Source: Clostridiales bacterium (GTDB taxonomy: Bacteria; Bacillota; Clostridia; Lachnospirales; Lachnospiraceae). Taken from it: a DNA stretch of 58,220 bases. The notes beneath the pieces are model-generated. The model saw nothing but the letters and a program-made list of their open reading frames with translations, had not been told where the DNA came from and did not search any database. Location of the stretch: contig JAQXPY010000042.1 in NCBI GenBank assembly GCA_029100885.1, positions 1 to 58,220 on the forward strand. Reading direction: 5' to 3'. Shown piece by piece: positions 166 through 53,976 of this stretch. A program made the translations under genes and the position numbers. Positions within the stretch are counted from its first letter, which is position 1, and every line of letters begins with the position of its first letter.

Positions 166-466
166 ATCTTATCCTCCTGAAAGTGTAGATTATTTGTACA
201 ATCTGTTGTTGATCGATCATCTGTCCGGCACCCGGCAAAGTGATTTTTCTTCTGAATATCGTGCCGTGTGCTCCTGATGTGTCATGGTGTGTGCTGTTAC
301 TATTCAGCACCCGGTAAAATACATTCGCAATTCACTCGCCTTTGGCTCGCTTCTTGCTCATGTTTTTGCCGTCTGCTCCTCAGACCCGTCACGATCTCAT
401 ACGGAAAAATATGCAGGCACATTTTTCCTACTGATATCGCGGCATGTGCTGAATAGTTACCGTTTT

Positions 467-2755
467 TTACAACTTGCTTCTGATGACGGTGCCGTTGGCA
501 GTCTTAGGAAGCTCTGATCTGAACTCTACTATACGCGGATACCTGTAAGCAGCGGTATGTGTTTTGACATAGTTCTGTATCTCTTCCTTAAGATCGTCGG
601 ATGGCTCCTTATCGTCTATAAGAACCACGCTGGCCTTGACGACCTGTCCTCTTATTTCGTCAGGAACAGCCGATACTCCGCATTCCTTTACATAAGGAAG
701 CTCCATGATGACGCTTTCCACCTCATAAGGACCTATACGGTAGCCCGAGCATTTGATAACATCATCGACTCTTCCGATCGGCCAGAAATAGCCGTCCTCA
801 TCCTTCCATGCCAGATCGCCTGTATGGAAATAACCGCCTGCAAATACCTTTGCGTTCGAATCCGGGGAGTTGTAGTAGCCTGTCATAAGTCCGATAGGCA
901 TGCCCTGACTTATGGAAATGCATATCTCGCCGGGTTCCCCGGTCTCTACCTCGTTAAGTTCGGTGTCAAGAAGACGGATATCGAAGATAGGATTGACCTT
1001 TCCTACAGCTCCGGCCTTAGGCGTCATGCCGATAAAGGAGCCGAGCAGAAGTGAGGTCTCCGTAAGTCCGTATCCTGTCATGATGGAAAGACCGGTCTCT
1101 TTCCTGAAGTGGTTGAATACTTCGGCGCTGAGGTTATCCCCGACGGAGCACACATGCTTAAGGGAAGACAGATCGAAGCTCTTCAGATCCTCATGTAGAA
1201 GAGCCCTGAACATGGATCCTGGAGCGGTAAACGAGGCGATCCTGTATCTTTCGATAAGCTTCAGAAGGTCAGAAGGCTTAATCTTTCTGAAATCATAGGC
1301 AAATACTCCCGATTCGCAGATCCACGGACCAAAGAGCTTTCCCCAAAGAGCCTTTGCCCAGGCGGTGTCGGAAAGACAGAAGCTTAACGTATCGGGCTCA
1401 TTGCAGTTCCAGTAATAGCCTGTAACAAAATGCGCCAGCGGATATCTGCAGTCAAAGCAGGTCGCCTTTGGCATGCCGTCCGAGTAGGACTGGAATATCA
1501 TCATCAGTGGATCACTGCCGCAGGCGGAATCTCTTGATCTCAAAAACCTTGCCGACATCCTGTCATATTCGGTATCGAAATCATACCAGCCATCAGGAGC
1601 GGAGCCTGCAGCTATCTTAATAAGAGACCTGCCGTATCTGGAAGCCGCACTGTCAATCTGTCCGGTTATAAAGCTGTCGCCGCAGGCTATGACTGCGCTT
1701 ATGCCTGCCGCTCTGAACCTGTACAGGTAATCCTTCTCAAGCAGCTGGTCGATAACGGGAACGGCTACCGCACCGATCTTCTGGAGAGCTGTAATTATGA
1801 TCCAGAAATGATAGGAACGACGCAGCACAAGCATGACACGATCTCCCTTTTTGATACCGAGGGAGGCAAGGTAATTGGCGGCACGTCCGCTCTTTTTCTT
1901 TATATCCTTAAATGTAAAACGGCGTTCCGTAAGGCCTTCGTCCAGATGAACGAGTGCTGTCTTATCAGGCTCTGTATCAGCGATCCTGTCAACGATATCA
2001 AAGGCAAAGTTGAACCTGTCGCTATTTTTGAAAAAAATACTTTCAAGTACGCCGCTGCCGGATTCCTTAGGCGATACAAAGTCCTCCCATACACGGCGGC
2101 GTCCGGTCTCCCTTGTAGCTGTAAGGACAGGAACCTGGGTACGCGCCTTTGAGAAGTCAATATCCTCCGGTGAGACCATAGCAGCTAAAAAAACACAGTC
2201 CTTACCGCCGGAGGCTATCATGCCGTGCGGAGCCGAGGAATCGTAAAATATCGTGTCCCCGGCATTCAGAACCTCTGTATGCTCGCCGATGCGGATCTTC
2301 AGACTGCCGCTGAGAATATAGTCAAATTCCTGACCTATGTGAGAGGAGACCTCTATAGGGAGGTTTTCCTTTTCCGGATCGTATTCAACAGTCACAATGA
2401 GCGGTTCCACCATTCTGTTTCGGAATTTTGAGGCAAGATTATGAACTGTCATGCCGTTGGCTCTGCTGACAGTACCGGTATCTCCTCCGCGGTTTACCGA
2501 GTATGAGCTCAGATTAGGCACAGCTCCTTCGATAAGCTCATTGATATCTACATTAAAGACCTGGGAGCAGGTATAGAGAAAAGCATAGTTCAGCTCATGC
2601 TCACCGTTTTCAAAGGCAGAATAGTCTTCCGCGGAAATACTTAAGATACCTGCCATATATTCCTTTGTAAAATTATGAATATGCCGCAGATCTCGGATAC
2701 GCCTTCTGATATCAGATGAACTGAGATCAGGCATGGTTGTTTCAGACATGATCAT
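467..2755 (-). CDS. XRE-HTH + cupin domain fused to an AMP-forming acyl-CoA synthetase-like domain (762 aa); the catalytic motifs are degenerate, so it may be a non-catalytic sensor or regulator paralog
   Basis: The N-terminus has an HTH_3-like segment (IRDLRHIHNFTKEYMAGILSISAEDYSAFENGE) and a cupin (GQEFDYILSGSLKIRIGEHTEVLNAGDTIFYDSSAPHGM). The C-terminal ~520 aa align along their length with the neighbouring paralog and carry adenylate-forming motifs (GYGLTET, YFHTGDLAWKDEDGYFW, GRVDDVIKCSGYRIGPYEVE). The A3 loop reads FQSYSDGMPKA and A10 reads PKTANGTVIR (Lys replaced by Thr). Confidence 0.85.
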   Translation of the reverse strand: MIMSETTMPDLSSSDIRRRIRDLRHIHNFTKEYMAGILSISAEDYSAFENGEHELNYAFLYTCSQVFNVDINELIEGAVPNLSSYSVNRGGDTGTVSRANGMTVHNLASKFRNRMVEPLIVTVEYDPEKENLPIEVSSHIGQEFDYILSGSLKIRIGEHTEVLNAGDTIFYDSSAPHGMIASGGKDCVFLAAMVSPEDIDFSKARTQVPVLTATRETGRRRVWEDFVSPKESGSGVLESIFFKNSDRFNFAFDIVDRIADTEPDKTALVHLDEGLTERRFTFKDIKKKSGRAANYLASLGIKKGDRVMLVLRRSYHFWIIITALQKIGAVAVPVIDQLLEKDYLYRFRAAGISAVIACGDSFITGQIDSAASRYGRSLIKIAAGSAPDGWYDFDTEYDRMSARFLRSRDSACGSDPLMMIFQSYSDGMPKATCFDCRYPLAHFVTGYYWNCNEPDTLSFCLSDTAWAKALWGKLFGPWICESGVFAYDFRKIKPSDLLKLIERYRIASFTAPGSMFRALLHEDLKSFDLSSLKHVCSVGDNLSAEVFNHFRKETGLSIMTGYGLTETSLLLGSFIGMTPKAGAVGKVNPIFDIRLLDTELNEVETGEPGEICISISQGMPIGLMTGYYNSPDSNAKVFAGGYFHTGDLAWKDEDGYFWPIGRVDDVIKCSGYRIGPYEVESVIMELPYVKECGVSAVPDEIRGQVVKASVVLIDDKEPSDDLKEEIQNYVKTHTAAYRYPRIVEFRSELPKTANGTVIRSKL

Positions 2756-2825
2756 TTCCTCTCAATCTTTGTTTGCCGAGGCTGTCCCCCTGCAGGAAAC
2801 GTCCTTGGTATTATCTTATTTTATC

Positions 2826-2850
2826 ATATGTGGAGTTATATATGTGGAGT
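2826..2850. promoter_or_regulatory. Direct repeat ATATGTGGAGT x2 (2826-2836 and 2840-2850, 14-bp period) overlapping the putative promoter of the 467-2755 gene; candidate operator
   Basis: Two exact 11-mers read directly from the sequence. On the minus strand they lie just upstream of an extended -10 (TGaTAAAAT, rc of 2818-2826), covering the -35/spacer positions. Confidence 0.35.
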
Positions 2851-2940
2851 ATTTTTTCATTTATTCGTAAGAGGATCGGTGTTCAATGAGGGTGTGAATG
2901 ATCTTCGCCGGTAACCAGATCGGATCACCGAAACTCATAT

Positions 2941-2977
2941 AAAAACAGCCATCGGCCAATAAAGAGACTGATGGCTG
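2941..2977 (-). terminator. Rho-independent terminator downstream of the 3027-5336 gene
   Basis: Minus-strand hairpin CAGCCATC(16-nt loop)GATGGCTG followed by UUUUU (rc of the A-run at 2941-2945), about 50 nt after the stop codon. Confidence 0.6.
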
Positions 2978-3026
2978 CGGATGCTTATTATAGCGTAAAT
3001 ATTAATGATAATTATCCTTATTGGAT

Positions 3027-5336
3027 TTAAAGCTTGTTTCTCTGGATCTTTCCGCTGACTGTCTTAGGCAGTGAATCGCGGAATACTACTATACGAGGAT
3101 ACTTGTAAGGAGCAGTCTTTTCCTTAACATAGTTCTGGATATCCTTCTTGAGCTCTTCTGTAGGCTCCGTACCCTTTACAAGCACGATGCTTGCCTTAAC
3201 GACCTGACCTCTCGTCTCATCCGGCTCGGCGGATACTCCGCATTCTAAAACATAAGGAAGCTCCATGATGACAGACTCGATCTCGAAAGGTCCGATACGA
3301 TAGCCGGAGGACTTGATGATGTCGTCGGTCCTGCCCACATACCAGAAGTATCCGTCCTCATCTCTCCATGCCAGATCGCCTGTGTGATACCAGCCGTCGT
3401 GCATAGCTCTCTTTGTGGTCTCGGGATCATTGTAATAGCCCTTGAAGAGTCCGCAAGGAGTACCCTTGGAATAGTTGATGACGATCTCGCCCGGCTCTCC
3501 TGTACCGACTGACTCCCCGTCGGAATTTACGAGGTCGATCTGATACATAGGACTCGGCTTGCCCATTGAGCCTGGCTTTGGAGTCATTCCTACGAAGTTT
3601 CCGACTGTCAGCGTTGTTTCTGTCTGTCCGAAGCCCTCCATGATGCTCAAGCCCGTAGCTTCCTTAAATCTGTCAAATACTTCAGGGTTCATCGCCTCAC
3701 CGGCTATGCTGGCATGCTTGATGCTTGACAGATCGTATTTGCTGAGATCCTCCTTGATAAAGAAACGGTACATCGTAGGCGGAGCACAGAAGGTAGTGAT
3801 ATTGTATTTCGCGAACAGAGGAAGCAGATCGTCGGAATGGAATCTGTCGAAATCGTATACAAAGGTTGCTGCTCCGTTCATCCACTGACCGTAGATCTTC
3901 CCCCAGAGAGCCTTGCCCCAGCCTGTATCCGATATGGTGAAGTGGATGCCGTCAGGATCCACATCGTGCCAGTAACGGGCTGTTGCAAAATGACCGAGAG
4001 GATATTTGCAGCTGTGCTCCACAGCCTTCGGATACCCGGAGGTACCGGAGGAAAAGAGCATGAGCATGGTATCTTCTCCGCAGATGCATTCGCCTGTGCG
4101 GCGGTAACGGCTTGAATACATATCATATTCGTCATCGAAATCATGCCAGCCCTCTGCTTCGGCTCCCTCACAGAGACCGCCTGTCATGATCTTGAGCTCC
4201 ACGGTAGGGCACTGAGGCAGAGCCTTTTCGACCTCCTCATGAACGGTGCCGAAGGAGGTGCAGACGACCGCCCTGACAGATGCCGCATTGAAGCGGTATT
4301 CCAGATCCTTTTTAAGCAGCTGGTCTGTGGCAGGTATGGCAACGGCTCCCAGCTTGTGCAGGCCTACGAGAATAGGCCAGAATTCCCAGTTTCTGCGAAG
4401 AAGCAGAAGCACCTTATCACCCTTTCTGATACCCTGTGCCTTGAAATAATTGGCTGCTCTGGCGCTCATTTTCTTCATATCGTTGAAGGTGAAGCGGCGC
4501 TCGTTCTTTTCACGGTCAAGGTGGAGCATGCACAGACGGTCAGGCTGCTCTTCGGCGACAGCGTCCACAACATCAAAGGCAAAATTAAAGTTTTCTGTAT
4601 TCTTAAATACTAGCTTAGTCGGATAGCCTGCCTCATTCTCCTCTGTCTGTATAAAATCTTCGACGAAATTAGGCACAGGCTTGCGGTACACGGCAGGAGC
4701 TGTCTGAACAGAAGCACTGTTTCTCAGGTGACCGTCCTTCCATACTACCTCCGAACCCTCTTCAGGGAGAATGACTGAAAGGAATGTGACATCCTCTCCG
4801 TTGAGAGCTATCATTCCGTGAGGATTTGAAGAGCTGTAAAAGGCACTGTCACCCACATTAAGAATCTCTTCGTGTTCACCGATCTTAAGCTTCATAGAGC
4901 CCTTGAGTACTATATCGAATTCCTGACCGGAATGGGTGACCTGATGGATAGGAGCAGTTTGCTCCTCCTCGGAGTATTTGTATGTTACCCAATACGGATC
5001 TGCCTTACGGTTTTTGAAAAGAGGTGCAATGCTCTTGATCTCAATACCCGGCTCTACAGCTGTGATCTGTCCTTCACCGGCTCTTGTGATCTCATAGCCT
5101 GTAAGCCGCGGGCTGGTTCCCTCAAGCAGCTCCATCATTTCAACGCCGAACACATTGGCGCATTTGTGAATGAAGGAGAACGGAAGGTCTGCCTCACCCT
5201 GTTCGTAGAGCTCGTAATCCGAAAGGCTGAAGGCGGTAAGAGCAGCCATCTCCTCGGTGGAATATCCGCTGTCGAGACGGAGCTGTCTGATTCTCTCGGC
5301 TACCTCATGAAGCATTTTTCCTGTTGTTTCTGTCAT
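3027..5336 (-). CDS. XRE-HTH + cupin domain fused to a medium-chain (ACSM/Macs-like) AMP-forming acyl-CoA synthetase, 769 aa, catalytic motifs intact
   Basis: HTH (RIRQLRLDSGYSTEEMAALTAFSLSDYELYEQGE) and cupin (GQEFDIVLKGSMKLKIGEHEEILNVGDSAFYSSSNPHGM) are present. Intact adenylation motifs: A3 LFSSGTSGYPKAV, A5 GFGQTET, A7 YHTGDLA, A8 GRTDDIIKSSGYRIGPFEIE, A10 PKTVSGKIQR. RBS GGAGGAAAAG lies upstream of the ATG at 5336. Confidence 0.9.
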   Translation of the reverse strand: MTETTGKMLHEVAERIRQLRLDSGYSTEEMAALTAFSLSDYELYEQGEADLPFSFIHKCANVFGVEMMELLEGTSPRLTGYEITRAGEGQITAVEPGIEIKSIAPLFKNRKADPYWVTYKYSEEEQTAPIHQVTHSGQEFDIVLKGSMKLKIGEHEEILNVGDSAFYSSSNPHGMIALNGEDVTFLSVILPEEGSEVVWKDGHLRNSASVQTAPAVYRKPVPNFVEDFIQTEENEAGYPTKLVFKNTENFNFAFDVVDAVAEEQPDRLCMLHLDREKNERRFTFNDMKKMSARAANYFKAQGIRKGDKVLLLLRRNWEFWPILVGLHKLGAVAIPATDQLLKKDLEYRFNAASVRAVVCTSFGTVHEEVEKALPQCPTVELKIMTGGLCEGAEAEGWHDFDDEYDMYSSRYRRTGECICGEDTMLMLFSSGTSGYPKAVEHSCKYPLGHFATARYWHDVDPDGIHFTISDTGWGKALWGKIYGQWMNGAATFVYDFDRFHSDDLLPLFAKYNITTFCAPPTMYRFFIKEDLSKYDLSSIKHASIAGEAMNPEVFDRFKEATGLSIMEGFGQTETTLTVGNFVGMTPKPGSMGKPSPMYQIDLVNSDGESVGTGEPGEIVINYSKGTPCGLFKGYYNDPETTKRAMHDGWYHTGDLAWRDEDGYFWYVGRTDDIIKSSGYRIGPFEIESVIMELPYVLECGVSAEPDETRGQVVKASIVLVKGTEPTEELKKDIQNYVKEKTAPYKYPRIVVFRDSLPKTVSGKIQRNKL

Positions 5337-5488
5337 TTCTTTTCCTCCGTATCAGTAAAGTATTGATGCAGGCATATAGAATGATTGAATGCAGTGACGG
5401 CGTCGGGCACTTACGTTTTATAAAAATGCCGAGCCCGGGCCGTATCTACGGGATAGAGCTGACCGGAATAGGAAACCGGATATAAAAC

Positions 5489-5757
5489 AAAAAAGCCCGT
5501 CCCAAGAAAAAACCTTGAGACGAGCTGCTTATATGCATACCCGCGGTACCACTCAAATTGCGCTTTGACACGCCACTCATCAGACTCCTGCAAGTCCTGA
5601 GCACTAACGTAGCTTACACGTGAGACCCTACCCGGTATTCGCTCGGATCTCCGACTCGGAAGTGATGGATCATTGGGATGCCCTTCGCCCTGCTTCCAGC
5701 CAGTGACAGGTTCTCTGTTCTCCGGACGCTTCCCGATCGTCTTCGTCAATGTCTTTT
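5489..5757 (-). promoter_or_regulatory. T-box riboswitch leader (candidate specifier AUC = Ile) with intrinsic terminator, upstream of the 3027-5336 gene
   Basis: Elements on the minus strand: the Stem I base GGAAG...CUUCC; an AGAGA bulge followed by the distal loop UCACUGGCUGGAAG; an F-box-like ACGUUAG; and the T-box core AAUUUGAGUGGUACCGCGG (rc of 5541-5560). The terminator is AGCUCGUCUCAAGG-UUUUUU-CUUGGGACGGGCU (rc of 5494-5526) followed by a U-run. The candidate specifier is rc of 5664-5666 followed by A. Confidence 0.85.
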
Positions 5758-5762
5758 GACAC

Positions 5763-5791
5763 ATTAAAGCACAAGAGCATTGATATGTCAA
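5763..5791 (-). promoter_or_regulatory. Sigma-70-type promoter for the T-box leader (TTGACA-17 nt-TTTAAT)
   Basis: rc of 5786-5791 is TTGACA and rc of 5763-5768 is TTTAAT, with an exact 17-nt spacer. It sits immediately upstream of the first T-box helix. Confidence 0.6.
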
Positions 5792-5875: not shown

Positions 5876-5999
5876 CGATTTATCAATTGAGAAAATAATC
5901 AGGCTGCAAACGGAGATATATACAGTCTGCAAGGAGATATAATCAGGCTGCATACCGGGATTATGATAGTGGATATATTCAGAACTGACGGAGGTAATA

Positions 6000-6968
6000 A
6001 TGGAGGCTGAAAGGATAAGAGAGCTGTCAGACAGGCTGCTTTTTGAAACTGAAAAGATAATAGTCGGAAAATCCGACAGAATAAGGCTCATGATAATGGC
6101 AGTACTTGCCGGAGGGCATGTGCTTATAGACGATCTTCCGGGGTTGGGCAAAACAACGTTGATCAAGGCACTTTCGGCAGCGCTTGGCTGTGAGTTCAGG
6201 AGAGTGCAGTTTGTGCCGGATCTGATGCCTTCGGATATTTCAGGAATGAGGATATTCAATCAGAGGACAGGAGCCTTCGAGCTGTCGGAGGGTCCTGTCA
6301 TGACAAATATTCTGCTGGCAGACGAGATCAACAGAGCTATTCCGAGGACTCAGTCGGCTCTGCTGGAGGCAATGGAGGAGAGACAGGTCACCATTGACGG
6401 AGACTCCATCAGACTGCCGCAGCCGTTCATCGTGCTGGCTACTCAGAACCCGGTGGAGTCGGAAACTACATTTCCGCTTCCTGCAGCCCAGATGGACAGA
6501 TTTCTTATCAGGCTGTCTATAGGCTATCCTTCTCATGAGGAGGAGCTGCGTATGCTTGGAGTGCTCGGAGACAGGATACCATTTGAAAGCGTTGAAGCAG
6601 TAACGAATGCCGGTGAGCTTTCAGTTCTTATAGGGGAGCTTTCGGAGGTGTCGGTGTCAGAAAAGGTTGCGGACTATATCGTAAGAATAACCGAGGCTAC
6701 CAGACATAGCAACGAGCTTAGATCCGGCGCCAGCCCGAGAGCATCAAGGGCATTATATAAGGCTTCTAAGGTGTGGGCTGCTATGAAGGGCAGGGATTAT
6801 GTTACACCTGATGATGTGAGAGAGCTGGCGCATCCTGTGCTGGAGCATAGACTGATCCTGTCATCCCAGGCCGCATTTTCCGGAAGAACCGCAGGAGATG
6901 TACTGGAAGAGATACTGAAGGGTACAGTTCCTCCGCCTGATGCGGACGGTATTCTCGGTATTGGATAG
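6000..6968 (+). CDS. MoxR-family AAA+ ATPase
   Basis: Walker A DDLPGLGKTT, Walker B LLADEINRA, sensor region VLATQNP and the C-terminal ASPRAS motif are typical of MoxR/AAA_3. RBS GGAGG lies before the ATG. Confidence 0.9.
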   Translation: MEAERIRELSDRLLFETEKIIVGKSDRIRLMIMAVLAGGHVLIDDLPGLGKTTLIKALSAALGCEFRRVQFVPDLMPSDISGMRIFNQRTGAFELSEGPVMTNILLADEINRAIPRTQSALLEAMEERQVTIDGDSIRLPQPFIVLATQNPVESETTFPLPAAQMDRFLIRLSIGYPSHEEELRMLGVLGDRIPFESVEAVTNAGELSVLIGELSEVSVSEKVADYIVRITEATRHSNELRSGASPRASRALYKASKVWAAMKGRDYVTPDDVRELAHPVLEHRLILSSQAAFSGRTAGDVLEEILKGTVPPPDADGILGIG

Positions 6969-13059: not shown

Positions 13060-13899
13060 ATGAAGTCTGAATTCTGGGAAAAAATGTTATACGGACCGAG
13101 ACGTATCCTTGTTACCGGTCATTTCGGAAGCGGGAAGACAGAGTTTTCTGTTTCTCTCGCTTTTGCACTTGCTGAAAGGATGTCAGTCGCAGGAAACAGA
13201 GTAAATGACACAACGGGAGCGATCGTTCCGGGTGCCTCCGGGACAGGAGCTGCAGTGGATGATGCCGTGTACGGGCGGCCGCTCAGGGAGAGCAGGCTGG
13301 CTCTTGCCGATCTGGATATAGAAAACCCATATTTCAGAAGCCGTGAGCGTCAGGATGAGTTGAATGCCGCAGGCGTCAGAGTCTATTCCGATCCCTTTAA
13401 CGGCAGAAACGGGTCGGAGCTTCAGGTCATCAGCGCCTCAGTCCTGGCTCCTGTACAGGATCCGGAATGCCGCATAATCATCGACACCGGCGGAGACAAG
13501 TCGGGAGCCATGGTCCTCAATCAGTTCAGCAGACATTTCGGAGATGATTATCAGCTCTTAAGCGTGGTCAACTGCAACAGACCGGGAACCGATACACCGG
13601 AAAAGGCTGCCGTTCAGATTCGGGAAGCCCAGGCTGTGACCGGTCTTAAGGTCACCGGACTTGTTTCAAACGCTCATTTTATCAGATATACTTCGGCAGA
13701 GGATGTTTTGCATGGTCTTGATTTTACTATGAAGGTCTCAGAGCTTACCGGAATCCCGGTTCTGTGTGCCTGTGCCATGGATTCTGTCTGTTCGGAGGTC
13801 CGGAAGGCTGTTTCCGAGGGCAAAGCGGAGCTTAAGGGTGCGGAGCTTTTCAGGATCGGCATGTATATGAGAGAGTCATACCTCGATAAGAGAGTATAA
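13060..13899 (+). CDS. P-loop NTPase (SIMIBI/MinD-Mrp-like), first gene of the 2-oxoacid:ferredoxin oxidoreductase cluster
   Basis: Walker A GHFGSGKTE, an ADLDIENPYF switch-like segment, a Walker B-like IIIDTGGD and VVNCNRPG. A low-complexity insert (NDTTGAIVPGASGTGAAVDD) follows the Walker A helix. Confidence 0.65.
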   Translation: MKSEFWEKMLYGPRRILVTGHFGSGKTEFSVSLAFALAERMSVAGNRVNDTTGAIVPGASGTGAAVDDAVYGRPLRESRLALADLDIENPYFRSRERQDELNAAGVRVYSDPFNGRNGSELQVISASVLAPVQDPECRIIIDTGGDKSGAMVLNQFSRHFGDDYQLLSVVNCNRPGTDTPEKAAVQIREAQAVTGLKVTGLVSNAHFIRYTSAEDVLHGLDFTMKVSELTGIPVLCACAMDSVCSEVRKAVSEGKAELKGAELFRIGMYMRESYLDKRV

Positions 13900-13949: not shown

Positions 13950-14174
13950 ATGAAAAGAAGATTTAAAGTACTTTTCAACAAGGAGAAATGCAAGGGCTGT
14001 GAGCTGTGTATTTCCTTCTGTCCTAAGAAGATACTGGGTCTGGATCCTGAGGTGAATTCCAAGGGCTATCATCCTGCCGGTATTATCAACGAGGAGGAAT
14101 GCATAGGCTGCCGGAGCTGTGCGACCATGTGTCCTGACTGCTGCATTACCATTCAGGAGATTGAGGAGGCATAA
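13950..14174 (+). CDS. 2-oxoacid:ferredoxin oxidoreductase delta subunit (2x[4Fe-4S] ferredoxin domain)
   Basis: Two CxxCxxCxxxCP motifs (CKGCELCISFCP and CIGCRSCATMCP). GGAG RBS. It immediately precedes the alpha subunit. Confidence 0.85.
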   Translation: MKRRFKVLFNKEKCKGCELCISFCPKKILGLDPEVNSKGYHPAGIINEEECIGCRSCATMCPDCCITIQEIEEA

Positions 14175-14176
14175 TT

Positions 14177-15253
14177 ATGAGCAAGGTTTTAATGAAAGGA
14201 AATGAGGCATTTGCGGAGGCTGCTATCAGAGGCGGCTGTAAATGCTACTTTGGTTACCCTATCACTCCTCAGAACGAGGTTCCCGAGTACATGAGCCATG
14301 AGCTGCCTAAGGCAGGCGGAGCATTTATTCAGGCCGAGAGCGAGCTGGCTGCCGTCAATATGGCGTATGGCGCAGCTGCCAGCGGAGGAAGAGTATTTAT
14401 ATCTACCAGTTCTCCGGGACTTGCGCTTATGCAGGAGGGACTTGGCTTTATCTGCTCCTGTGAGGTTCCGCTGGTCGTTATGAATGTTTCAAGAGGCGGT
14501 CCCGGTGTCGGAGGTATTCAGCCAGGTCAGGCGGACTATTTCCAGGTCACCAGAGGCGGATACAACGGTGATGCAAGGATTCCGGTTTTTGCCCCTGCAA
14601 ATATTCAGGAGAGCGTGGATCTTATTTATGAATGCTTTGATATCGCCGAGAAATACCGCAATCCTGTTGTCATCTTTGCCGACGGTATGCTCGGTCAGAT
14701 GATGGAGCCGGTAGAGCTTCCGGAGCACAAGGGAATCCTTCCTGAGGATAAGATCTCAGAGGTCAAGCCATGGGCTATTACCGGAACCGATAATCATGAG
14801 GGAAGAAACGTTATCTATTCGCTCAGACTTCAGCCTGATGTGCTCGAGAATCATGTACACCATATGTTTGAAAAGTATGCAGAGGCTGAGAGGGAGCTGG
14901 TACGCTATAAGACTGTCGGTCTTGAGGATGCGGAGATCGTATTTGTTGCATTCGGAACTATGTCCAGGATCTGCGCAGAGGCTATTGAGCTTCTTGAGGA
15001 GCAGGGAGTTAAGGCCGGTCTTATCAGACCGATAAGCCTGTGGCCGTTCCCTAAGGCCGCCTTTGATGAGATCGGAGCAAAGACAAAGCTCGTTATTTCC
15101 ACAGAGCTTTCCATGGGACAGATGATCGAGGATGTAAAGATGGCATGTGCCGGAAGATGGCCGGTGGGTCTTATCAACCGTACAGGCGGAATCGTTCCGT
15201 CTTCAAGAGAGGTTGCGGACCGTGCTCTCAAAGCCCTTCAGGAGGTGAAATAA
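14177..15253 (+). CDS. 2-oxoacid:ferredoxin oxidoreductase alpha subunit (VorB/KorA-like)
   Basis: MKGNEAFAEAAIRGGCKCYFGYPITPQNE...AESELAAVNMAYGAAASGGR is the conserved OFOR alpha N-terminus. The gene is packed tightly against its neighbours. Confidence 0.9.
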   Translation: MSKVLMKGNEAFAEAAIRGGCKCYFGYPITPQNEVPEYMSHELPKAGGAFIQAESELAAVNMAYGAAASGGRVFISTSSPGLALMQEGLGFICSCEVPLVVMNVSRGGPGVGGIQPGQADYFQVTRGGYNGDARIPVFAPANIQESVDLIYECFDIAEKYRNPVVIFADGMLGQMMEPVELPEHKGILPEDKISEVKPWAITGTDNHEGRNVIYSLRLQPDVLENHVHHMFEKYAEAERELVRYKTVGLEDAEIVFVAFGTMSRICAEAIELLEEQGVKAGLIRPISLWPFPKAAFDEIGAKTKLVISTELSMGQMIEDVKMACAGRWPVGLINRTGGIVPSSREVADRALKALQEVK

Positions 15254-15997
15254 ATGAAGACGATATTTGAGCCTACAAAGGGAATGCTCCCTGTTGATAC
15301 AAGCTACTGCCCTGGATGCACTCACGGAATCGCTCACCGCATTATCATGGAGGTCCTTGAGGAGAGAGGAGATCTCGGCAAGACTATCGGAGTGGTTCCG
15401 ATCGGATGCTCCATCAATGCACATCATTTTATGAATATCGATATGTGCGAGTCTACCCACGGAAGAGCTCCGGCAATTGCTTCAGGTATCAGAAGAGTAC
15501 ATCCGGACAAGGTGATCTTCACCTATCAGGGTGACGGAGATCTGGCATCTATCGGTGCGGGAGAGATTATACATGCCGCCCACAGAGGCGAAAAGTTTAC
15601 CACCTTCTTTATCAATAACGGTATCTACGGCATGACCGGAGGACAGATGGCTCCGACCACCCTTATCGGACAGAAGGCTACCACCTGTGTTGACGGAAGA
15701 ACCGTAGAGCAGGCGGGCAAGCCTCTCAGAATGTGTGAGATCATTTCTCAGATAGACTGTGCTGTATTTGTAGAAAGGGTCATGCTCAACAACCCTGCAA
15801 ATGTCCGCAAGGCAAAGGAGGTTGTCCGCAAGGCTCTCGAGATCCAGGATGCCCGTCTCGGCTTTACCTTTGTCGAATTCCTGAGCTCCTGCCCAACCAA
15901 CTGGGGCCTGACTCCTGTGGATTCTCTGAAGTTCATTGAGAAGGACATGGCTGAGTATTATCCAGTTAAAAACTTTAAGACACCGGAGGGATTTTGA
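15254..15997 (+). CDS. 2-oxoacid:ferredoxin oxidoreductase beta subunit (TPP-binding)
   Basis: CPGCTHG cluster ligands near the N-terminus and the TPP motif GDGDLASIGAGE...NNGIYGMTGGQ. Confidence 0.9.
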   Translation: MKTIFEPTKGMLPVDTSYCPGCTHGIAHRIIMEVLEERGDLGKTIGVVPIGCSINAHHFMNIDMCESTHGRAPAIASGIRRVHPDKVIFTYQGDGDLASIGAGEIIHAAHRGEKFTTFFINNGIYGMTGGQMAPTTLIGQKATTCVDGRTVEQAGKPLRMCEIISQIDCAVFVERVMLNNPANVRKAKEVVRKALEIQDARLGFTFVEFLSSCPTNWGLTPVDSLKFIEKDMAEYYPVKNFKTPEGF

Positions 15998-16527
15998 TTA
16001 TGAAAAAGAAGATGTTCTTTGCAGGAAGCGGAGGACAGGGGGCCCTCGCAATTGGTCAGATGATAGCAAAAGCAGGTATGGAAGAAGGAAATGAAGTCAC
16101 ATGGCTTCCTTCCTACGGCCCGGAAATGAGAGGCGGTACGGCAAACTGTACGGTGATAGTATCTGACAAGCCTATCAGCTGTCCGCTCATCAATGATGCC
16201 GATGTTCTGGTTGCCATGAATCTGCCGTCGCTCAGAAAATTTGAATCCATGGTCAATCCGGGCGGTTATATTTTTATCAACAGCTCCATGGTTCCGGAGA
16301 CCTCGACACGTACAGATGTCAAGGTTATCGAAATTCCGGCAAACGAAAAGGCTGTGGAGATCGGGAATGACAGGGCGGCAAACATCGTCATGCTCGGTGC
16401 GATCCTTGCGGAGACAGGCTGCTGTAAAAAGGAGACTATCCTTCATCAGATGGAGAAGATGTTCTCCGGCAGAAAGGCAAAGTTCCTTCCTGCAAATATC
16501 GCGGCGCTGGAGCTCTACTGCAAATGA
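15994..16527 (+). CDS. 2-oxoacid:ferredoxin oxidoreductase gamma subunit
   Basis: GSGGQGALAIGQMIAKAG...SYGPEMRGGTANC is the conserved gamma-subunit signature. Its start overlaps the beta-subunit stop by 4 nt. Confidence 0.9.
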   Translation: MIMKKKMFFAGSGGQGALAIGQMIAKAGMEEGNEVTWLPSYGPEMRGGTANCTVIVSDKPISCPLINDADVLVAMNLPSLRKFESMVNPGGYIFINSSMVPETSTRTDVKVIEIPANEKAVEIGNDRAANIVMLGAILAETGCCKKETILHQMEKMFSGRKAKFLPANIAALELYCK

Positions 16528-16590
16528 TCTGCTGCAAACCTTATAAACATATTTTGCATATAATTGTTTTATTTTCTCAGGAGGAAAATT

Positions 16591-17430
16591 ATGGCAGGAA
16601 AAAAGATGACAGTCATTGACTTTCAGAAGTACAAGGACGAGGGAAAAAAGTTCAGCTTCGTAACAGCATATGACTATACAACAGCTTCTATTATCAATGA
16701 TTCGGATGTTGAGGTCATCCTCGTAGGTGATTCCCTTGGAATGATCATGCTTGGTTATGATTCTACCGTTCCGGTAACACTGGATGATGTTATTCATCAT
16801 GCGAAGCCTGTTGTTAAGGGTGCTCCTGATAAGTTTATTATCGGTGACATGCCGTTCGGCTCATACAATGTCAGCATCGAAGAGGCTATCAGAAATGCAA
16901 ACCGCATGGTCAAGGAGACAGGCTGCGATTGTATTAAGCTGGAGGGAGGCGTTGAGATGGCAGACACCATCCGTGCCCTCGTTAAGGCCGGAATCAATGT
17001 TATGGGTCATATAGGTATGACTCCTCAGACAGCTACCTCCTTCGGCGGCTTCAAGGTTCAGGGAGGAACTCCTGAGTCAGCAAGAAAGCTTATCGAGGAT
17101 GCCAAGGCTCTTCAGGACGCAGGCGTTTTCTCTATCGTAGTCGAGTGTGTTCCGAGCGTTGTTGCCAAGGCTATGCAGGAAGAGGTAAGAGTACCTATAC
17201 TTGGAATCGGTGCCGGTCCTGATGTTGACTGTCAGGTTCTTGTTACACAGGATCTTTTAGGAATGTACGGCGACTTCAAGCCTAAGTTCGTAAAGCAGTT
17301 TGCGCATATCCGTGAGGAGATGGTTAGAGGACTCAACCAGTTCCATGAGGAGACTATCAGCGGAGAGTTCCCGACACCTGAGTTTAGCTTCAACAAGGCT
17401 GTGGATATCCCTAAGGTATATGGCGGCTGA
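16591..17430 (+). CDS. panB: 3-methyl-2-oxobutanoate hydroxymethyltransferase
   Basis: The ATG at 16591 follows AGGAGGA. FSFVTAYDYTTA...VGDSLGM...GDMPFGSY...IKLEGG...GHIGMTPQ are PanB signatures. The ORF-track start at 16564 is probably too far upstream. Confidence 0.9.
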   Translation: MAGKKMTVIDFQKYKDEGKKFSFVTAYDYTTASIINDSDVEVILVGDSLGMIMLGYDSTVPVTLDDVIHHAKPVVKGAPDKFIIGDMPFGSYNVSIEEAIRNANRMVKETGCDCIKLEGGVEMADTIRALVKAGINVMGHIGMTPQTATSFGGFKVQGGTPESARKLIEDAKALQDAGVFSIVVECVPSVVAKAMQEEVRVPILGIGAGPDVDCQVLVTQDLLGMYGDFKPKFVKQFAHIREEMVRGLNQFHEETISGEFPTPEFSFNKAVDIPKVYGG

Positions 17431-17675: not shown

Positions 17676-18224
17676 TTGTTAGGGGATAAGGTTAGGGAAG
17701 CCAGAAAGAGCAAGCATATTACGCTTGAACAGCTGGCCGAGGCAAGCGGACTGACTGCAAGTTATATTTCGCAGTTGGAAAGGAATCTGACAGAGCCTTC
17801 TATTTCTTCGCTAAGAAAGATAGCCCAGGAGCTGCAGATGCCGATTTATGCTTTTCTTGAAGAGGAGAGTCCGCAGACATTTGTGATCAGAAGGGGAAGG
17901 AGAAAGTCCCTGAGACTTGAGCAGAGCGGAATAGAGTATGAGTACCTTACTCCTCTGGGTGCAAATCGCAATCCGATGATGGAGATAGTGGAGTTCAAGC
18001 TCAAGCCGGGCAAATGGACAAATGATGACTATCTGCGTCATTCACTTTCCGAGGAGTGCATAGTTGTTCTTGAAGGCGCGCTGACTGTTGACTGCGTGGA
18101 CCAGACTTATATTCTGGAGCAGGGTGACAGCATTTACCTGAACAACAATACACCGCACAATATTTATAATCACACTGATAAAAATGCCGCAGCGCTGTTT
18201 TTTGCAACGCCGCCGGTTTTGTAA
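17676..18224 (+). CDS. XRE-HTH + cupin transcriptional regulator (stand-alone); TTG 17676 preferred, GTG 17586 is an alternative start
   Basis: HTH LGDKVREARKSKHITLEQLAEASGLTASYISQLERN followed by a C-terminal cupin (ECIVVLEGALTVDCVDQTYILEQGDSIYLNNNTPHNIYN). AGGGGA lies 9 nt before the TTG. Confidence 0.75.
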   Translation: MLGDKVREARKSKHITLEQLAEASGLTASYISQLERNLTEPSISSLRKIAQELQMPIYAFLEEESPQTFVIRRGRRKSLRLEQSGIEYEYLTPLGANRNPMMEIVEFKLKPGKWTNDDYLRHSLSEECIVVLEGALTVDCVDQTYILEQGDSIYLNNNTPHNIYNHTDKNAAALFFATPPVL

Positions 18225-18237
18225 GGAGGAAAAAGCA

Positions 18238-19176
18238 ATGAAGATCGGATTTCTCGGTTGCGGAGCTATCGGAAGCATCTATGCAGGTTATCTGACAAAG
18301 GCTCATGAGGTATGCGTGGTTGATACCTTTGCACCGGTCATCGAAGCAGTAAAAAAAGACGGAATTCTTATTGACGAATGTGTACCGGGATCGGGAAGCG
18401 GAGAAACAGTCTCATTCAGACCTGCAATGGCATCTACCGATCCGAAGGAGATTGGAGTTGTAGATATTCTTATCGTCTTTGTAAGATATATGTTCCTTGA
18501 GGCTGCCTGCAGAAATGCACTCCCTATGATAGGACCTGACACTGTGGTAGTAACACTTCAGAACGGTATCGGCAACTATGATGAGATCGCAAAGGTCGTT
18601 CCTGAGGATCAGATCGTAATAGGAAACACAGCCTTCGGCTCCACCGGCTTAGCCCCGGGACATGTAAAGCATACAGGAACCGGAACCACATTCATGGGAA
18701 CTCTTGCAGCGCCTATCGAAAAGGCAGAGAAGGCTGCGGCAGCACTCAGAGAGGCCGGTTTTGAGGTGGTAGTCAAGGAAAATGTTATGGAGGTCATCTG
18801 GCATAAGGCTTTTGCCAATGTTGCTATCAATGCTATTACAGCTCTGATGGATCAGACTAACATTTTCATCAACGACAATCAGTATGCCAGAGAGGCTGCA
18901 AGACTTCTGGTGGAGGAGGCTCTTGATGTTGCCATTGCCAGCGGCTGCAGGTTTGACAGGGAAGCGGAGCTTGCGCATGCCTATGAGATCGCTGTGGCTA
19001 CAGGTACGAACAGATCCTCAACGCTTCAGGATGTTACACACCAGAAGGAGACTGAGATCAGGATCATCAACGGAGCGGTCTCCAGGATCGGACGCCAGTA
19101 CGGGATCCCTACTCCGTATAACGATATGATCTGTCAGCTTATGCTTGCAAAGCAGTCAATTTATCTCGGCAGATAA
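18238..19176 (+). CDS. panE: 2-dehydropantoate 2-reductase (ketopantoate reductase, PanE/ApbA family)
   Basis: The ATG at 18238 follows AAGGAGGA. It has an N-terminal Rossmann fold MKIGFLGCGAIGSIYAG and the C-terminal STLQDV...KETEI motif typical of the family. Confidence 0.85.
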   Translation: MKIGFLGCGAIGSIYAGYLTKAHEVCVVDTFAPVIEAVKKDGILIDECVPGSGSGETVSFRPAMASTDPKEIGVVDILIVFVRYMFLEAACRNALPMIGPDTVVVTLQNGIGNYDEIAKVVPEDQIVIGNTAFGSTGLAPGHVKHTGTGTTFMGTLAAPIEKAEKAAAALREAGFEVVVKENVMEVIWHKAFANVAINAITALMDQTNIFINDNQYAREAARLLVEEALDVAIASGCRFDREAELAHAYEIAVATGTNRSSTLQDVTHQKETEIRIINGAVSRIGRQYGIPTPYNDMICQLMLAKQSIYLGR

Positions 19177-19285: not shown

Positions 19286-20812
19286 ATGTTTCAGATCATG
19301 AGTGCCAGAGAGGCAGTGAGCCTCATCAAGGACGGCGATGTAATCGGTCTTAATTCATTCGTAGGTATTGCGAATCCTGAAAAGATTCATGATGCGATCA
19401 CCGAGAGCTTCAGAGAAACAGGCTCACCGAAGAATCTGACCCTCGTATCCGCTTCCGGTTTCGGAACCTTTGATCCAAACAGAAGTGCGGAAAACTATAT
19501 CCGTGAAGGAGCTGTAAGCAGGATCATCTGCGGCCATTACGGAGCAATGCCAAGCACAAAGAGGCTGGTTCTGGAGGACAAATTTGAGGCTTATAACATA
19601 CCTCTAGGTCCGATGTCCCATACCATGCGTGCCCAGGCAGGCGGACATGACGGCTATCTCAGCAAGGTAGGCCTCGGGATTTTTGTGGATCCGAGAGTGG
19701 AGGGTCCGGGACTCAACAGCATTTCCCGGGACAAATCCCTTGTCAAGGTTGTTGATGTGGACGGAGAGGAGTATCTTCAGTACAGACTTCCTGCATTTAA
19801 TGTAGCCATAATCAAGGCCAGCAGCGTGGACGCATACGGAAATATTTCCTTTGAGGACGAGTACTGTACGATTGATGCTCTTTCCATTGCTCAGCTCACA
19901 AAGCGAAACAAGGGAAAGGTAATAGTTCAGGTCGACAGGGTAAAGCATGATTTCAGCAGACCGAGGGATGTCATCATTCCGGCTGTATTCGTGGATGCGG
20001 TAGTGGTATGTGAGCCTGAGACCTCCAGCGATGCCAACGGAACACTTTCAGGAAACATTCATGTTCCGTCAACTCATATGCAGTATTGGTACAGAAGGCT
20101 TTCCGATCAGAATGCCAAGAGCGGAAAAGCAAGAAGTGATTTTTCGGCTGATATTATCGGCAGAAGAGCGGCGAAGGAGCTGAAGAGGGGAGACATCGTT
20201 AATATCGGTGTAGGTATCCCTGAGATGGTCAGCAAATATGCAGCTGCAGGAGGTATCCTTCAGGATCTTACACTTTCTGTTGAGTCAGGAGGAACAGGCG
20301 GTCTTCCTGCCGGCGGACTTGACTTCGGAGCAATGATAGGCGCAGGAACCATCTGTGATATGGCGAACCAGTTTGATTTTTATGACGGAGGCGGTCTTGA
20401 TATCTGCTTCATGGGCGGTTTAGAGATGGACAGGTTCGGAAATGTCAACTCACACAGAGGCGCTGATCAGGTCTCCGGTATCGGCGGCTTCGGAAATATT
20501 ACTGCTGCGACTCGCAATGTGGTCTTCTGCTTTACCTTCAATACAAAGGGACTTAATGTTACCGAGGAGAACGGAAAAGTTGTGATCAATTCCGAGGGAA
20601 GCATTCCAAAGCTTGTTGAGAAGGTCAGAAGCATCAGCTTTTCCGGAGAGAGAGCCATTAAGAACGGACAGCATGTTATCTATGTAACGGAGCGATGCGT
20701 ATTTGAGCTGAAGCCGGAGGGTCTGACGCTTATTGAGGTGTATCCGGGCATAGATGCACAGAAGGATATCTTTGACAGGCTTCCTTTCAAGGTAATTGAC
20801 GGCAGACAGTGA
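19286..20812 (+). CDS. Family-I acyl-CoA:carboxylate CoA-transferase (YdiF/propionate CoA-transferase type)
   Basis: N-terminus SAREAVSLIKDGDVIGLNSF and a central LSVESGGTGG (catalytic Glu region). Single-chain fused A/B architecture of about 510 aa. Confidence 0.85.
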   Translation: MFQIMSAREAVSLIKDGDVIGLNSFVGIANPEKIHDAITESFRETGSPKNLTLVSASGFGTFDPNRSAENYIREGAVSRIICGHYGAMPSTKRLVLEDKFEAYNIPLGPMSHTMRAQAGGHDGYLSKVGLGIFVDPRVEGPGLNSISRDKSLVKVVDVDGEEYLQYRLPAFNVAIIKASSVDAYGNISFEDEYCTIDALSIAQLTKRNKGKVIVQVDRVKHDFSRPRDVIIPAVFVDAVVVCEPETSSDANGTLSGNIHVPSTHMQYWYRRLSDQNAKSGKARSDFSADIIGRRAAKELKRGDIVNIGVGIPEMVSKYAAAGGILQDLTLSVESGGTGGLPAGGLDFGAMIGAGTICDMANQFDFYDGGGLDICFMGGLEMDRFGNVNSHRGADQVSGIGGFGNITAATRNVVFCFTFNTKGLNVTEENGKVVINSEGSIPKLVEKVRSISFSGERAIKNGQHVIYVTERCVFELKPEGLTLIEVYPGIDAQKDIFDRLPFKVIDGRQ

Positions 20813-31375: not shown

Positions 31376-31448
31376 GCTGATATAGCACAGGTGGTAGTGC
31401 GTCGCATTGGTAATGCGGAGGTCTCGGGTCCGAGTCCCGATATCAGCT
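31376..31448 (+). tRNA. tRNA-Thr (anticodon GGU), 73 nt, CCA not encoded
   Basis: Manual cloverleaf: acceptor GCTGATA/TATCAGC, D-stem GCAC/GTGC, anticodon stem TCGCA/TGCGG, loop TT-GGT-AA, variable AGGTC, T-stem TCGGG/CCCGA. The T-loop is TCCGAGT (C at position 55). Confidence 0.85.
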
Positions 31449-53623: not shown

Positions 53624-53976
53624 AGAGCAGCATAAACGGTCGCTGCCGCAGCAAAGGCTGCGGGAGAGGAAAGTCCGGGCTTCACAGGGCAGGATGCCTG
53701 ATAGCGTCAGGTGGGAGCGATCCTAAGGAAAGTGCAACAGAAAGTATACCGCCTCAATGCCGCGTCATTGGGGTAAGGGTGAAATGGCAGTGTAAGAGAC
53801 TACCGGCTCTGCGGTAACGCGGCAGCGCATTGTAAACCCCATCCGAAGCAAGTCCATGAAGAAACGATATGGCGGCCCGTCATGTTTCGGGTAGGACGCT
53901 TGAGGTATACGGTGACGTATATCCTAGATAGATGACCGTTCACGACATAACCCGGCTTACAGTGCTGCTCATTTTT
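53624..53976 (+). ncRNA. rnpB: RNase P RNA (bacterial, apparently type A)
   Basis: Universal blocks GAGGAAAGTCCGGGC, ACAGAAAGTATACCGCC, GGTAAGGGTGAAA, GTAAACCCCA, AGATAGATGA and ACATAACCCGGCTTA are present. P1 pairs GAGCAGCA (5') with TGCTGCTC (3'). The ends are approximate (+/-5 nt). Confidence 0.9.

Follow-up and report, generated by a model that had tools for sequence, protein, structure and literature searches.

Can one protein both bind DNA and convert an acid substrate, in the manner of BirA or PutA? The question is raised by two tandem genes, here called P1 and P2, near one end of a 58,220-nt stretch of DNA from a Clostridiales bacterium of the Lachnospiraceae (GenBank assembly GCA_029100885.1, contig JAQXPY010000042.1), the whole of which is referred to below as the window. 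Each gene encodes a fusion of a helix-turn-helix (HTH) domain, a cupin and a full acyl-coenzyme A (CoA) synthetase, and an earlier note on this DNA had proposed both products as trigger enzymes. The comparative analysis described here points in a different direction. It is fairly likely that P2 is a branched-chain carboxylate:CoA ligase gated by an isoleucine (Ile) T-box, that P1 is a degenerate paralogue of it, and that the HTH-cupin module which they share is an accessory unit that does not act on an operator.

Both minus-strand open reading frames (ORFs) listed in the earlier note, of 762 and 769 aa, are present (Table 1), and Pfam gives them the same domain order. In P1 these are HTH_19 (residues 18-77), Cupin_2 (136-191), AMP-binding (256-628, E 1e-52) and AMP-binding_C (678-755); in P2 they are HTH_31 (12-66), Cupin_2 (127-188), AMP-binding (258-635, E 4e-59) and AMP-binding_C (685-763), the last with an E-value of about 2e-20 in both proteins. 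The N-terminal 200 residues are indeed HTH and cupin, with HTH matches above their cut-offs (39.4 bits for HTH_19 in P1, cut-off 30.2; 30.0 bits for HTH_31 in P2, cut-off 27). The ribosome-binding site of P1 favours the ATG at 2749, and the same start is called on contig L084, from the same species. An assembly or frameshift artefact joining separate genes was ruled out, since hundreds of full-length homologues (60-86% identical) have the same architecture, and identical or near-identical fusion proteins occur on independent contigs. A recent tandem duplication was ruled out as well: P1 and P2 are only 47% identical over their full length, which makes the duplication an old one, and they belong to different, widely distributed clades. 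The terminator that the earlier note had placed between the two copies was recovered, and together with the promoter of the P2 leader and a candidate P1 promoter it bears out the view that they are separate transcription units. The stand-alone HTH-cupin gene reported at 17676-18224 is likewise real (HTH_3 plus Cupin_2, PuuR-like).

The phyletic distribution of the fusion, which the earlier note had suggested checking, proved to be wide. A pattern scan with one genome per species found the fusion at no fewer than 599 loci in species-representative genomes of gut and rumen Clostridia; the listed loci are almost all from herbivore, rumen and gut metagenome-assembled genomes of Oscillospiraceae, Acutalibacteraceae, Christensenellaceae and Ruminococcus. 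Sporobacter termitidis is an example of a carrier in culture. The best 120 matches in each of two database searches are full-length and have the same Pfam architecture throughout, and the database names of homologues are only "AMP-binding protein", "cupin domain-containing protein", "XRE family with cupin sensor" or "acetyl-CoA synthetase". The earlier note had not recognised the fusion as a characterised family, and targeted full-text literature searches gave no paper on it. The family is thus large and without a published study that we could find; the enzyme half and the leader of P2 are of known kinds.

In its enzyme half P2 is, by sequence, an ordinary ligase of the Macs/MbcS subfamily. 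All catalytic motifs are intact (P-loop FSSGTSGYPK, nt 4026-4055; PKTVSGK; A10 Lys763, nt 3048-3050), and residues 246-767 align from end to end with Macs, the medium-chain acyl-CoA synthetase of Methanosarcina acetivorans (MacsMa, PDB 3ETC; E 6e-196). This is the nearest relative of known structure, and its preferred substrate is 2-methylbutyrate (PMC10455477). The CoA-pocket residues of MacsMa (G459, Y460, R490, K519, Y525 and Y527) are conserved. MbcS is the best NCBIfam model, with 432.9 bits for P2 and 339.3 bits for P1 and an equivalog cut-off of 850, and by this measure both proteins are related to MbcS without being MbcS equivalogs. The role of Staphylococcus aureus MbcS in branched-chain acid activation and anteiso fatty-acid priming is documented (PMC10026030, PMC11167679). 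P2 has in common with MacsMa and MbcS the ANL ligase fold, the subfamily and the conserved CoA pocket, and the characterised members favour 2-methylbutyrate or short branched acids; unlike P2, they are stand-alone proteins of about 525-560 aa that lack an N-terminal HTH-cupin and have no reported T-box control. Judged from 3ETC/MacsMa, from the T-box specifier and from the gene context, P2 would be a branched-chain carboxylate:CoA ligase with 2-methylbutyrate as its most likely substrate.

The T-box lies in the 663-nt spacer upstream of P2 (5337-5999). This spacer is more than a promoter region: besides the P2 promoter it contains the T-box leader and a second terminator. The core promoter is near consensus and is kept in close relatives. 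The leader that follows includes a full Stem I, the T-box sequence AAUUUGAGUGGUACCGCGGG (5559..5540) and an antiterminator, and in the Rfam alignment its specifier is AUC (5666..5664), a codon for Ile, with A as the next base. The 5' arm of the terminator overlaps the 3' strand of the antiterminator, and the two structures are mutually exclusive. With the known RF00230 T-boxes of ilv/leu and aminoacyl-tRNA synthetase genes the leader shares the K-turn, the specifier loop, the AGAGA and distal-loop motifs, UGGUACCGCG and the antiterminator/terminator switch, and AUC is the usual specifier of Ile T-boxes. It differs from them in the regulated gene, which encodes a carboxylate:CoA ligase, in a Stem I without the AGUA S-turn element (Rfam alignment) and in a score that falls below the gathering cut-off. 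On these sequence features the leader can be called an ordinary T-box, and P2 is demonstrably placed under the control of a predicted tRNA-sensing element. Targeted full-text literature searches gave no report of T-box control of acyl-CoA ligases. A search of the window revealed no riboswitch or T-box before P1, the neighbouring aminotransferase gene or the 2-oxoacid:ferredoxin oxidoreductase (vor) genes.

The same type of control recurs throughout the family. In 80 related loci, from which the T-box-motif and neighbourhood counts are drawn, the motif AGTGGTACCGCG is found 80-200 nt upstream of 53 of the 54 A-type genes, the type to which P2 belongs, and also upstream of 34 of the 37 B-type genes, which in 25 loci stand as a tandem copy after A. 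The specifier was read as the three bases preceding the last unpaired base before the helix that closes onto the K-turn. Of the 68 A-type leaders so read, 65 have AUC; of the 47 B-type leaders, 45 have one of the valine (Val) codons GUA and GUC. By the same rule, neighbouring leuA-like genes carry the leucine (Leu) codons CUC or CUG, and one leuA-like leader (116 bits) has CUC at the Rfam specifier columns. The register is fixed by this Leu control, by the synonymous variation between the Val codons and by the stop codon UAG that appears in an alternative register. A register of CAU was ruled out because the preceding base varies, and one of UCA/UCC by the B-type leaders, which would then read the stop UAG, and by the Rfam alignment. 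One paralogue therefore answers to tRNA-Ile and the other to tRNA-Val, and each ligase paralogue can be assigned to one branch of the pathway. A single class-specific residue lies in the ligase domain, namely G474 of the Ile-type proteins, which is Ala in the Val-type proteins (motif SDTGW(G/A)K); if this is an acyl-pocket residue, the change to Ala would suit the smaller valine precursor. AT-rich palindromes resembling a CodY box are present upstream of the -35 of A-type genes (L010, AATTTTCAGAAAATT; L046, L021, L031 and others), which suggests a possible additional control of CodY type.

The gene neighbourhoods place the ligases beside two further activities. Genes for the alpha, beta and gamma subunits of Vor, a 2-oxoisovalerate:ferredoxin oxidoreductase, are neighbours at 37, 31 and 35 of the 80 loci, respectively, ilvE at 27 and a leuA-like gene at 28. 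The ilvE product is a branched-chain aminotransferase of class IV and scores 504 bits with the NCBIfam BCAT model (cut-off 307). A CbiA/ParA-like P-loop protein of about 222 aa is encoded between the ligase and vor genes at 42. According to the work of Allison and Bryant since the 1960s, rumen and gut Clostridia reportedly need branched short-chain acids and build Ile, Val and Leu by reductive carboxylation. This classical rumen route, from 2-methylbutyrate to Ile and from isobutyrate to Val, has three steps, which correspond to ligase, Vor and aminotransferase; no gene-level assignment of the activating enzymes was found in our literature searches. A third ligase paralogue, of about 820-840 aa, carries an N-terminal TIM barrel of the xylose-isomerase-like kind (AP_endonuc_2) where the others have the HTH-cupin. 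Its gene lies downstream of a leuA-like gene that has a Leu T-box (CUC/CUG), and on this context the paralogue may represent the isovalerate/leucine branch.

P1 has taken another course. Nearly all of 229 family members keep the P-loop [FL][ST]SG[ST][ST]GYPK and the A10 Lys (PKTxSGK), both of which are essential for adenylation. In P1 the P-loop is replaced by FQSYSDGMPK (nt 1466-1495) and the A10 Lys by Thr756 (nt 488-490; PKTANGT). The QSYS-type P-loop is common to the four nearest relatives of P1 (P0122, P0123, P0126 and P0131; 55-61% identical to it), two of which also lack the A10 Lys, and two have TGT for TGD. From these motifs P1 appears to be a member of the ANL family by fold only, in contrast to P2, which qualifies by its P-loop and A10 Lys, and P1 is probably a conserved pseudoenzyme unable to adenylate. 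We counted the residues that are invariant in A- and B-type proteins and altered in at least four of the five D-type proteins, as P1 and its four relatives are called here; the share is 28% in the N-terminal and 15% in the C-terminal ligase domain, 17% in the HTH and 4% in the cupin. Many of the replacements are identical in all five proteins (G431Y, Y435M, H441F, H457N, C517T and others) and have arisen once and then been kept. P1 keeps the equivalents of the MacsMa CoA-pocket residues Y460, R490, Y525 and Y527 and has Arg in the place of K461; the protein probably still binds CoA or acyl-CoA.

The order of genes around P1 is conserved too: an A-type gene with an Ile T-box is followed by the D-type gene and this by a class I/II aminotransferase gene, in the window, in L084 and in L085 and L086, which represent two other members of the D subclade. 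D-type genes have no T-box of their own. Gaps of 73 and 28 nt separate the three genes in L085 and point to a single operon; P1 of the window has a transcription unit to itself, set by the terminator and the candidate extended -10. The retained residues suggest that P1 is most likely a non-catalytic ligand-binding protein, either a sensor or a partner that may regulate P2 or the aminotransferase. Two direct repeats ACTCCACATAT (2826-2836 and 2840-2850, + strand) overlap the candidate -10; they are kept only in the same-species contig and are uninformative as evidence for an operator. Between the P1 stop and the aminotransferase start (166-466) there is an insertion of about 200 nt (chiefly 296-460, minus strand) that is absent from L084. 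It is bounded by an inverted repeat (296-310/446-460), gives a weak Rfam match to "Clostridiales-1 RNA" (29 bits, E 0.0023) and may be a small mobile or structured-RNA element.

What, then, does the HTH-cupin module do? The HTH is strongly acidic: its 66 residues carry on average a net charge of -7.5 in 225 fused family members, and the net charge in P2 (residues 10-75) is -9. Stand-alone relatives of the module, of about 185 aa, have a mean HTH net charge of -5.9; for comparison, the values are +2 for the aligned segments of both 1Y9Q and SinR, and -2 for the window's own XRE-cupin protein. Helix 3 reads S-x-E-E/D-Y-x-x-Y-E-x-G, which puts Glu-Glu/Asp at the beginning of the recognition helix, and by the charge test the helix and the domain as a whole appear incompatible with the DNA contact expected of such a fold. 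The invariant HTH residues are R15, R20, E45 and G73, which we take to be those that hold the fold together.

The promoters give a similar picture. No operator palindrome was found among 111 family promoters aligned on the -10, which share only TTGACA, the extended -10 and AT-rich upstream tracts, and nothing upstream of the core promoter is kept in four close relatives. In 21 of the 111 promoters (2.5 expected) there is a AATTGAAT-like box close to the start of transcription, but it is not palindromic. Three direct repeats of about 22 nt (ATAATCAGGCTGCA...) are located at 5895-5961, between the P2 promoter and a divergent moxR-like gene (6000-6968). They are not kept in relatives, so they are uninformative as a family operator, and they might serve the moxR/DUF58 operon as an array of operators.

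The module is also found as a separate protein. At 38 metagenomic loci the gene for a module of about 185 aa lies, mostly by -1 to 26 nt, before a gene for a stand-alone Macs-type ligase of about 550-570 aa. The closest stand-alone module relatives are 35-43% identical, and no names are attached to them in the databases consulted. The existence of split and fused forms of the same pair indicates a stoichiometric partnership. T-box leaders precede 11 of 41 split pairs, and the readable specifiers are Ile or Val except in one leader. Some split pairs without a T-box (L155, L163, L164 and L165) have an inverted repeat, AGATTG-CGCC-CAATCT, about 50 nt 5' of the start codon and downstream of the -10; it could be an operator or a hairpin of the 5'-untranslated region, the four sequences being too closely related to tell.

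In the AlphaFold2 (AF2) model of P2 residues 1-245 (pLDDT 86.5), five helices are followed by a beta-barrel. Foldseek matches this model about equally well to 1Y9Q, an uncharacterised V. cholerae "HTH_3 regulator" and the only HTH-cupin "regulator" structure among the matches, and to the iron enzymes HppE, HEPD, MPnS and Psf4 (E 3e-13 to 1e-8). The match to HppE has an E-value of 5e-13, TM-scores of 0.4-0.5 and about 20% identity. The cupin triad H135, E139 and H173 is invariant in 81 sequences, dead paralogues included, and its spacing (H135-x3-E139...H173) is that of the 2-His-1-Glu site of HppE, an enzyme whose HTH-like domain does not bind DNA. HppE, HEPD and MPnS thus resemble the module in their helical-plus-cupin fold and their H-x3-E...H ligand pattern; they differ from it in the low identity, in domain orientation and in their phosphonate chemistry. 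Similarly, the XRE-cupin repressors PsdR, PuuR, PauR and ErfA (PMC7901475) are built like the module, with a cupin after an N-terminal XRE helix bundle and domains of the same Pfam families, and the module too has stand-alone relatives, of about 185 aa. The module differs in being fused or coupled to a ligase, in its acidic HTH and full H/E/H triad, and in lacking a detectable operator.

Trigger enzymes such as BirA, PutA, NadR and BzdR also link a metabolic-enzyme fold to gene regulation. The HTH domains of BzdR and NadR are of the XRE type, and the enzyme-like domain of BzdR, which derives from shikimate kinase, is without catalysis, as that of P1 probably is. In contrast to these proteins, P2 is regulated by an RNA leader, and its sequence disfavours DNA binding. 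The proposal of the earlier note, a BirA- or PutA-like protein able to bind DNA as well as to convert an acid, finds no support in the features compared here; it is weakened by the acidic HTH, the missing shared operator, the split pairs, the exchange of the module for a TIM barrel and the HppE-like fold. The module is probably not a classical DNA-binding repressor, and the facts fit a putative metal-centred ligand sensor, for instance one for Ile/Val feedback, or a paralogue-specific dimer interface.

In the account that we favour, P2 would act as a branched-chain carboxylate:CoA ligase of the Macs/MbcS type on 2-methylbutyrate. Transcription would start at the near-consensus promoter, and the Ile T-box would permit readthrough into P2 only with uncharged tRNA-Ile. 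The acyl-CoA would be reductively carboxylated by a 2-oxoacid:ferredoxin oxidoreductase of the vor type and then transaminated to Ile; it could also serve as a primer for anteiso fatty acids. The Val-linked sister paralogue, with its GUA/GUC T-boxes, would presumably use isobutyrate. P1 would descend from the Val-linked side or from near it, in a small lineage that lost the T-box, the P-loop and the catalytic Lys but not the metal triad of the cupin or the residues of the CoA pocket; it would be co-transcribed with the aminotransferase gene from its own promoter. The HTH-cupin module would be a metal-containing accessory domain coupled to the ligase, acting as an allosteric sensor of end product or substrate or as a dimerisation unit. 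In this scheme the architecture, the T-box with its specifier, the gene neighbourhoods, the lost motifs and the charge statistics are observed, and we infer from them which substrates are used, which way the pathway runs and what the module and P1 do.

Several observations sit less comfortably with this account. Net charge is a proxy only for DNA binding, the Pfam HTH models are above threshold in both ORFs, and stand-alone XRE-cupins are proven local repressors (PMC7901475). Eleven of the 13 positions that discriminate Ile-type from Val-type proteins are in the HTH-cupin module, the pattern that a DNA- or ligand-specific role would predict. In the full-length AF2 model (pLDDT 87, pTM 0.69) the linkers at 75-78 and 200-220 are of low confidence, and the module is not confidently docked onto the enzyme. 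The T-box of the window scores 67 bits, below the Rfam gathering cut-off of 93; homologous leaders reach 84-96 bits. The window's vor genes are about 8 kb from P2, have no T-box, adjoin panB/panE and may serve pantothenate or valine metabolism instead, and the aminotransferase beside P1 is of class I/II and not IlvE. P1 could retain some unconventional activity. Finally, in L081 (12558-21883) an 86%-identical relative of P2 with an Ile T-box (P0002) is encoded directly upstream of acpP-accBCDA-fabH-fabK-fabD-fabG-fabF-fabZ, a hint of fatty-acid priming by 2-methylbutyryl-CoA.

One possible alternative is that both proteins are trigger enzymes after all: an XRE-cupin dimer would bind an operator, the ligase domain, which works in P2 but is dead in P1, would report acid, acyl-AMP or acyl-CoA, and P1 would be a dedicated regulator similar to BzdR. 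The HTH_19 and HTH_31 matches and the accompanying cupin agree with this, as do the local repressors among XRE-cupins (PMC7901475) and FadD1 of Pseudomonas aeruginosa, an acyl-CoA ligase reported as a transcription factor that binds the lasR promoter (PMC12754631). It would also account for a P1 that keeps the module and the CoA pocket and loses catalysis, for direct repeats over its candidate promoter, for Ile/Val class-specific residues in HTH helices 3-4 and for palindromes near the -10 of some split pairs without a T-box. Nevertheless, a regulator is hard to reconcile with a charge of -7.5 and acidic residues at the start of the recognition helix, with 111 promoters and close relatives that share no operator, with a module fused 1:1 or translationally coupled to a highly expressed enzyme, and with a TIM barrel in the same place in the Leu paralogue; moreover, the T-box already gives control. 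We regard this reading as somewhat unlikely. That the cupin is itself catalytic, an HppE-like mononuclear-metal enzyme that would make the protein bifunctional by altering the acid ahead of ligation or the CoA ester, or either of them afterwards, is suggested by the invariant triad with its HppE spacing, by HppE, HEPD, MPnS and Psf4 as top Foldseek matches and by the different metal-enzyme fold, the xylose-isomerase-like TIM barrel, of the Leu paralogue. The route from acid through acyl-CoA and 2-oxoacid to amino acid needs no extra step, however, the identity and TM-scores with HppE are low, and many cupin sensors keep their metal ligands; we consider a catalytic role improbable.

The remaining alternatives concern the enzyme half. 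P2 may mainly supply 2-methylbutyryl-CoA as a FabH primer for anteiso fatty acids, as S. aureus MbcS does (PMC10026030, PMC11167679), with Ile synthesis not its main role; MbcS is the best NCBIfam model, and P0002 stands before a fab operon. Against this, the Ile T-box ties expression to the charging of tRNA-Ile and not to the state of the membrane, vor and ilvE are the usual neighbours, and the 433 bits of P2 are far from the MbcS cut-off of 850. We find such a main role rather unlikely, although the two functions are not mutually exclusive. As regards P1, its A5, A7 and A8 motifs are largely kept and its reading frame is intact, as would be expected of a ligase still active with unconventional motifs, or of a functionless gene in decay. 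Yet the P-loop and the A10 Lys are both lost, and the five D-type proteins share derived residues, full-length ORFs and synteny; the shared residues and synteny speak for selection on a new role and not for decay, and we judge either version improbable. A more specific reading of that role, in which P1 is a pseudoenzyme regulator or allosteric subunit that senses acyl-CoA or amino acids and the module a metal-dependent sensor acting on expression or on partner enzymes, is put forward tentatively and is on balance unlikely.

Table 1 Coordinates of the features described (positions refer to the window unless a locus is named)
Feature	Position	Strand	Details
P1, D-type degenerate paralogue	467..2755	-	762 aa; probable start 2749 (760 aa)
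P1 domains	HTH 2525-2704; cupin 2183-2350; AMP-binding 872-1990; AMP-binding_C 491-724
P2, A-type, Ile-linked HTH-cupin-acyl-CoA ligase	3027..5336	-	769 aa
P2 domains	HTH 5115-5303; cupin 4773-4958; AMP-binding 3432-4565; AMP-binding_C 3048-3284
Class I/II aminotransferase gene, 5' end, downstream of P1	1..165	-	392 aa on contig L084
Candidate P1 promoter	2818..2850	-	extended -10 TGaTAAAAT 2826..2818
Intrinsic terminator between P2 and P1	2941..2977	-	hairpin -19.2 kcal/mol, z -6.3, then UUUUU
T-box terminator	hairpin 5526..5494; with U-run 5484..5526	-	14 bp, -21.7 kcal/mol, z -6.5
T-box leader of P2	5513..5758	-	RF00230, model positions 1-219, 67.2 bits, E 2e-13
Promoter of P2 leader	5763..5791	-	TTGACA 5791..5786, 17-nt spacer, TTTAAT 5768..5763; read from sequence
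P-loop protein gene	13060-13899	+	groups by sequence with the ~222-aa CbiA/ParA-like neighbour protein
vor delta, 2x[4Fe-4S]	13950-14174	+	
vor alpha	14177-15253	+	NCBIfam VorB 475 bits, cut-off 399
vor beta	15254-15997	+	
vor gamma	15994-16527	+	
TIM-barrel ligase paralogue	L022 3239-5767	-	similar genes in L036, L046, L070, L073

Elsewhere in the window, the vor genes are directly followed by panB (16564-17430), the XRE-cupin gene (17676-18224) and panE (18184-19176), the latter two overlapping by 41 nt. This arrangement suggests a module that leads from 2-oxoisovalerate to pantoate and has a local repressor of its own. Near the vor and pan genes, a fused CoA-transferase of 508 aa is encoded at 19286-20812 (FadX-like, below the cut-off); it could yield isobutyryl-CoA without a ligase and may explain why a Val-type ligase became dispensable and degenerate here. 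The P-loop protein that accompanies the vor genes in the family (L031 6129-6800 and 41 other loci) has a weak CbiA/ParA match and a GHYGSGKTN motif, and the copy in the window has an extra insert of about 55 aa and no Pfam or NCBIfam match; the protein may help to mature the Fe-S oxidoreductase. Of the other RNAs encountered, RNase P RNA (53624-53975, 310 bits) and a tRNA gene (31376-31448) are located in the window, and 6S RNA adjoins a family locus in L019 (6809-6997).

For the biology of these bacteria, the locus and its relatives offer a gene set for the activation step of reductive carboxylation, made up of ligase paralogues, vor and ilvE, in which the T-box specifier names the amino acid served and hence predicts the substrate of each ligase. 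T-box control is thereby extended to a carboxylate:CoA ligase. The finding bears on the supplementation of ruminants with branched-chain volatile fatty acids and on the amino-acid economy of the gut. It also makes it risky to label any protein with HTH_3 and cupin domains a regulator. With its split, fused, module-swapped and catalytically dead forms, the family is a natural series for the evolution of accessory domains and pseudoenzymes. If the sensor reading is true, the scavenging of branched-chain acids would be controlled at two levels, by a T-box that reads tRNA charging and by a ligase-derived sensor that reads substrate or product.

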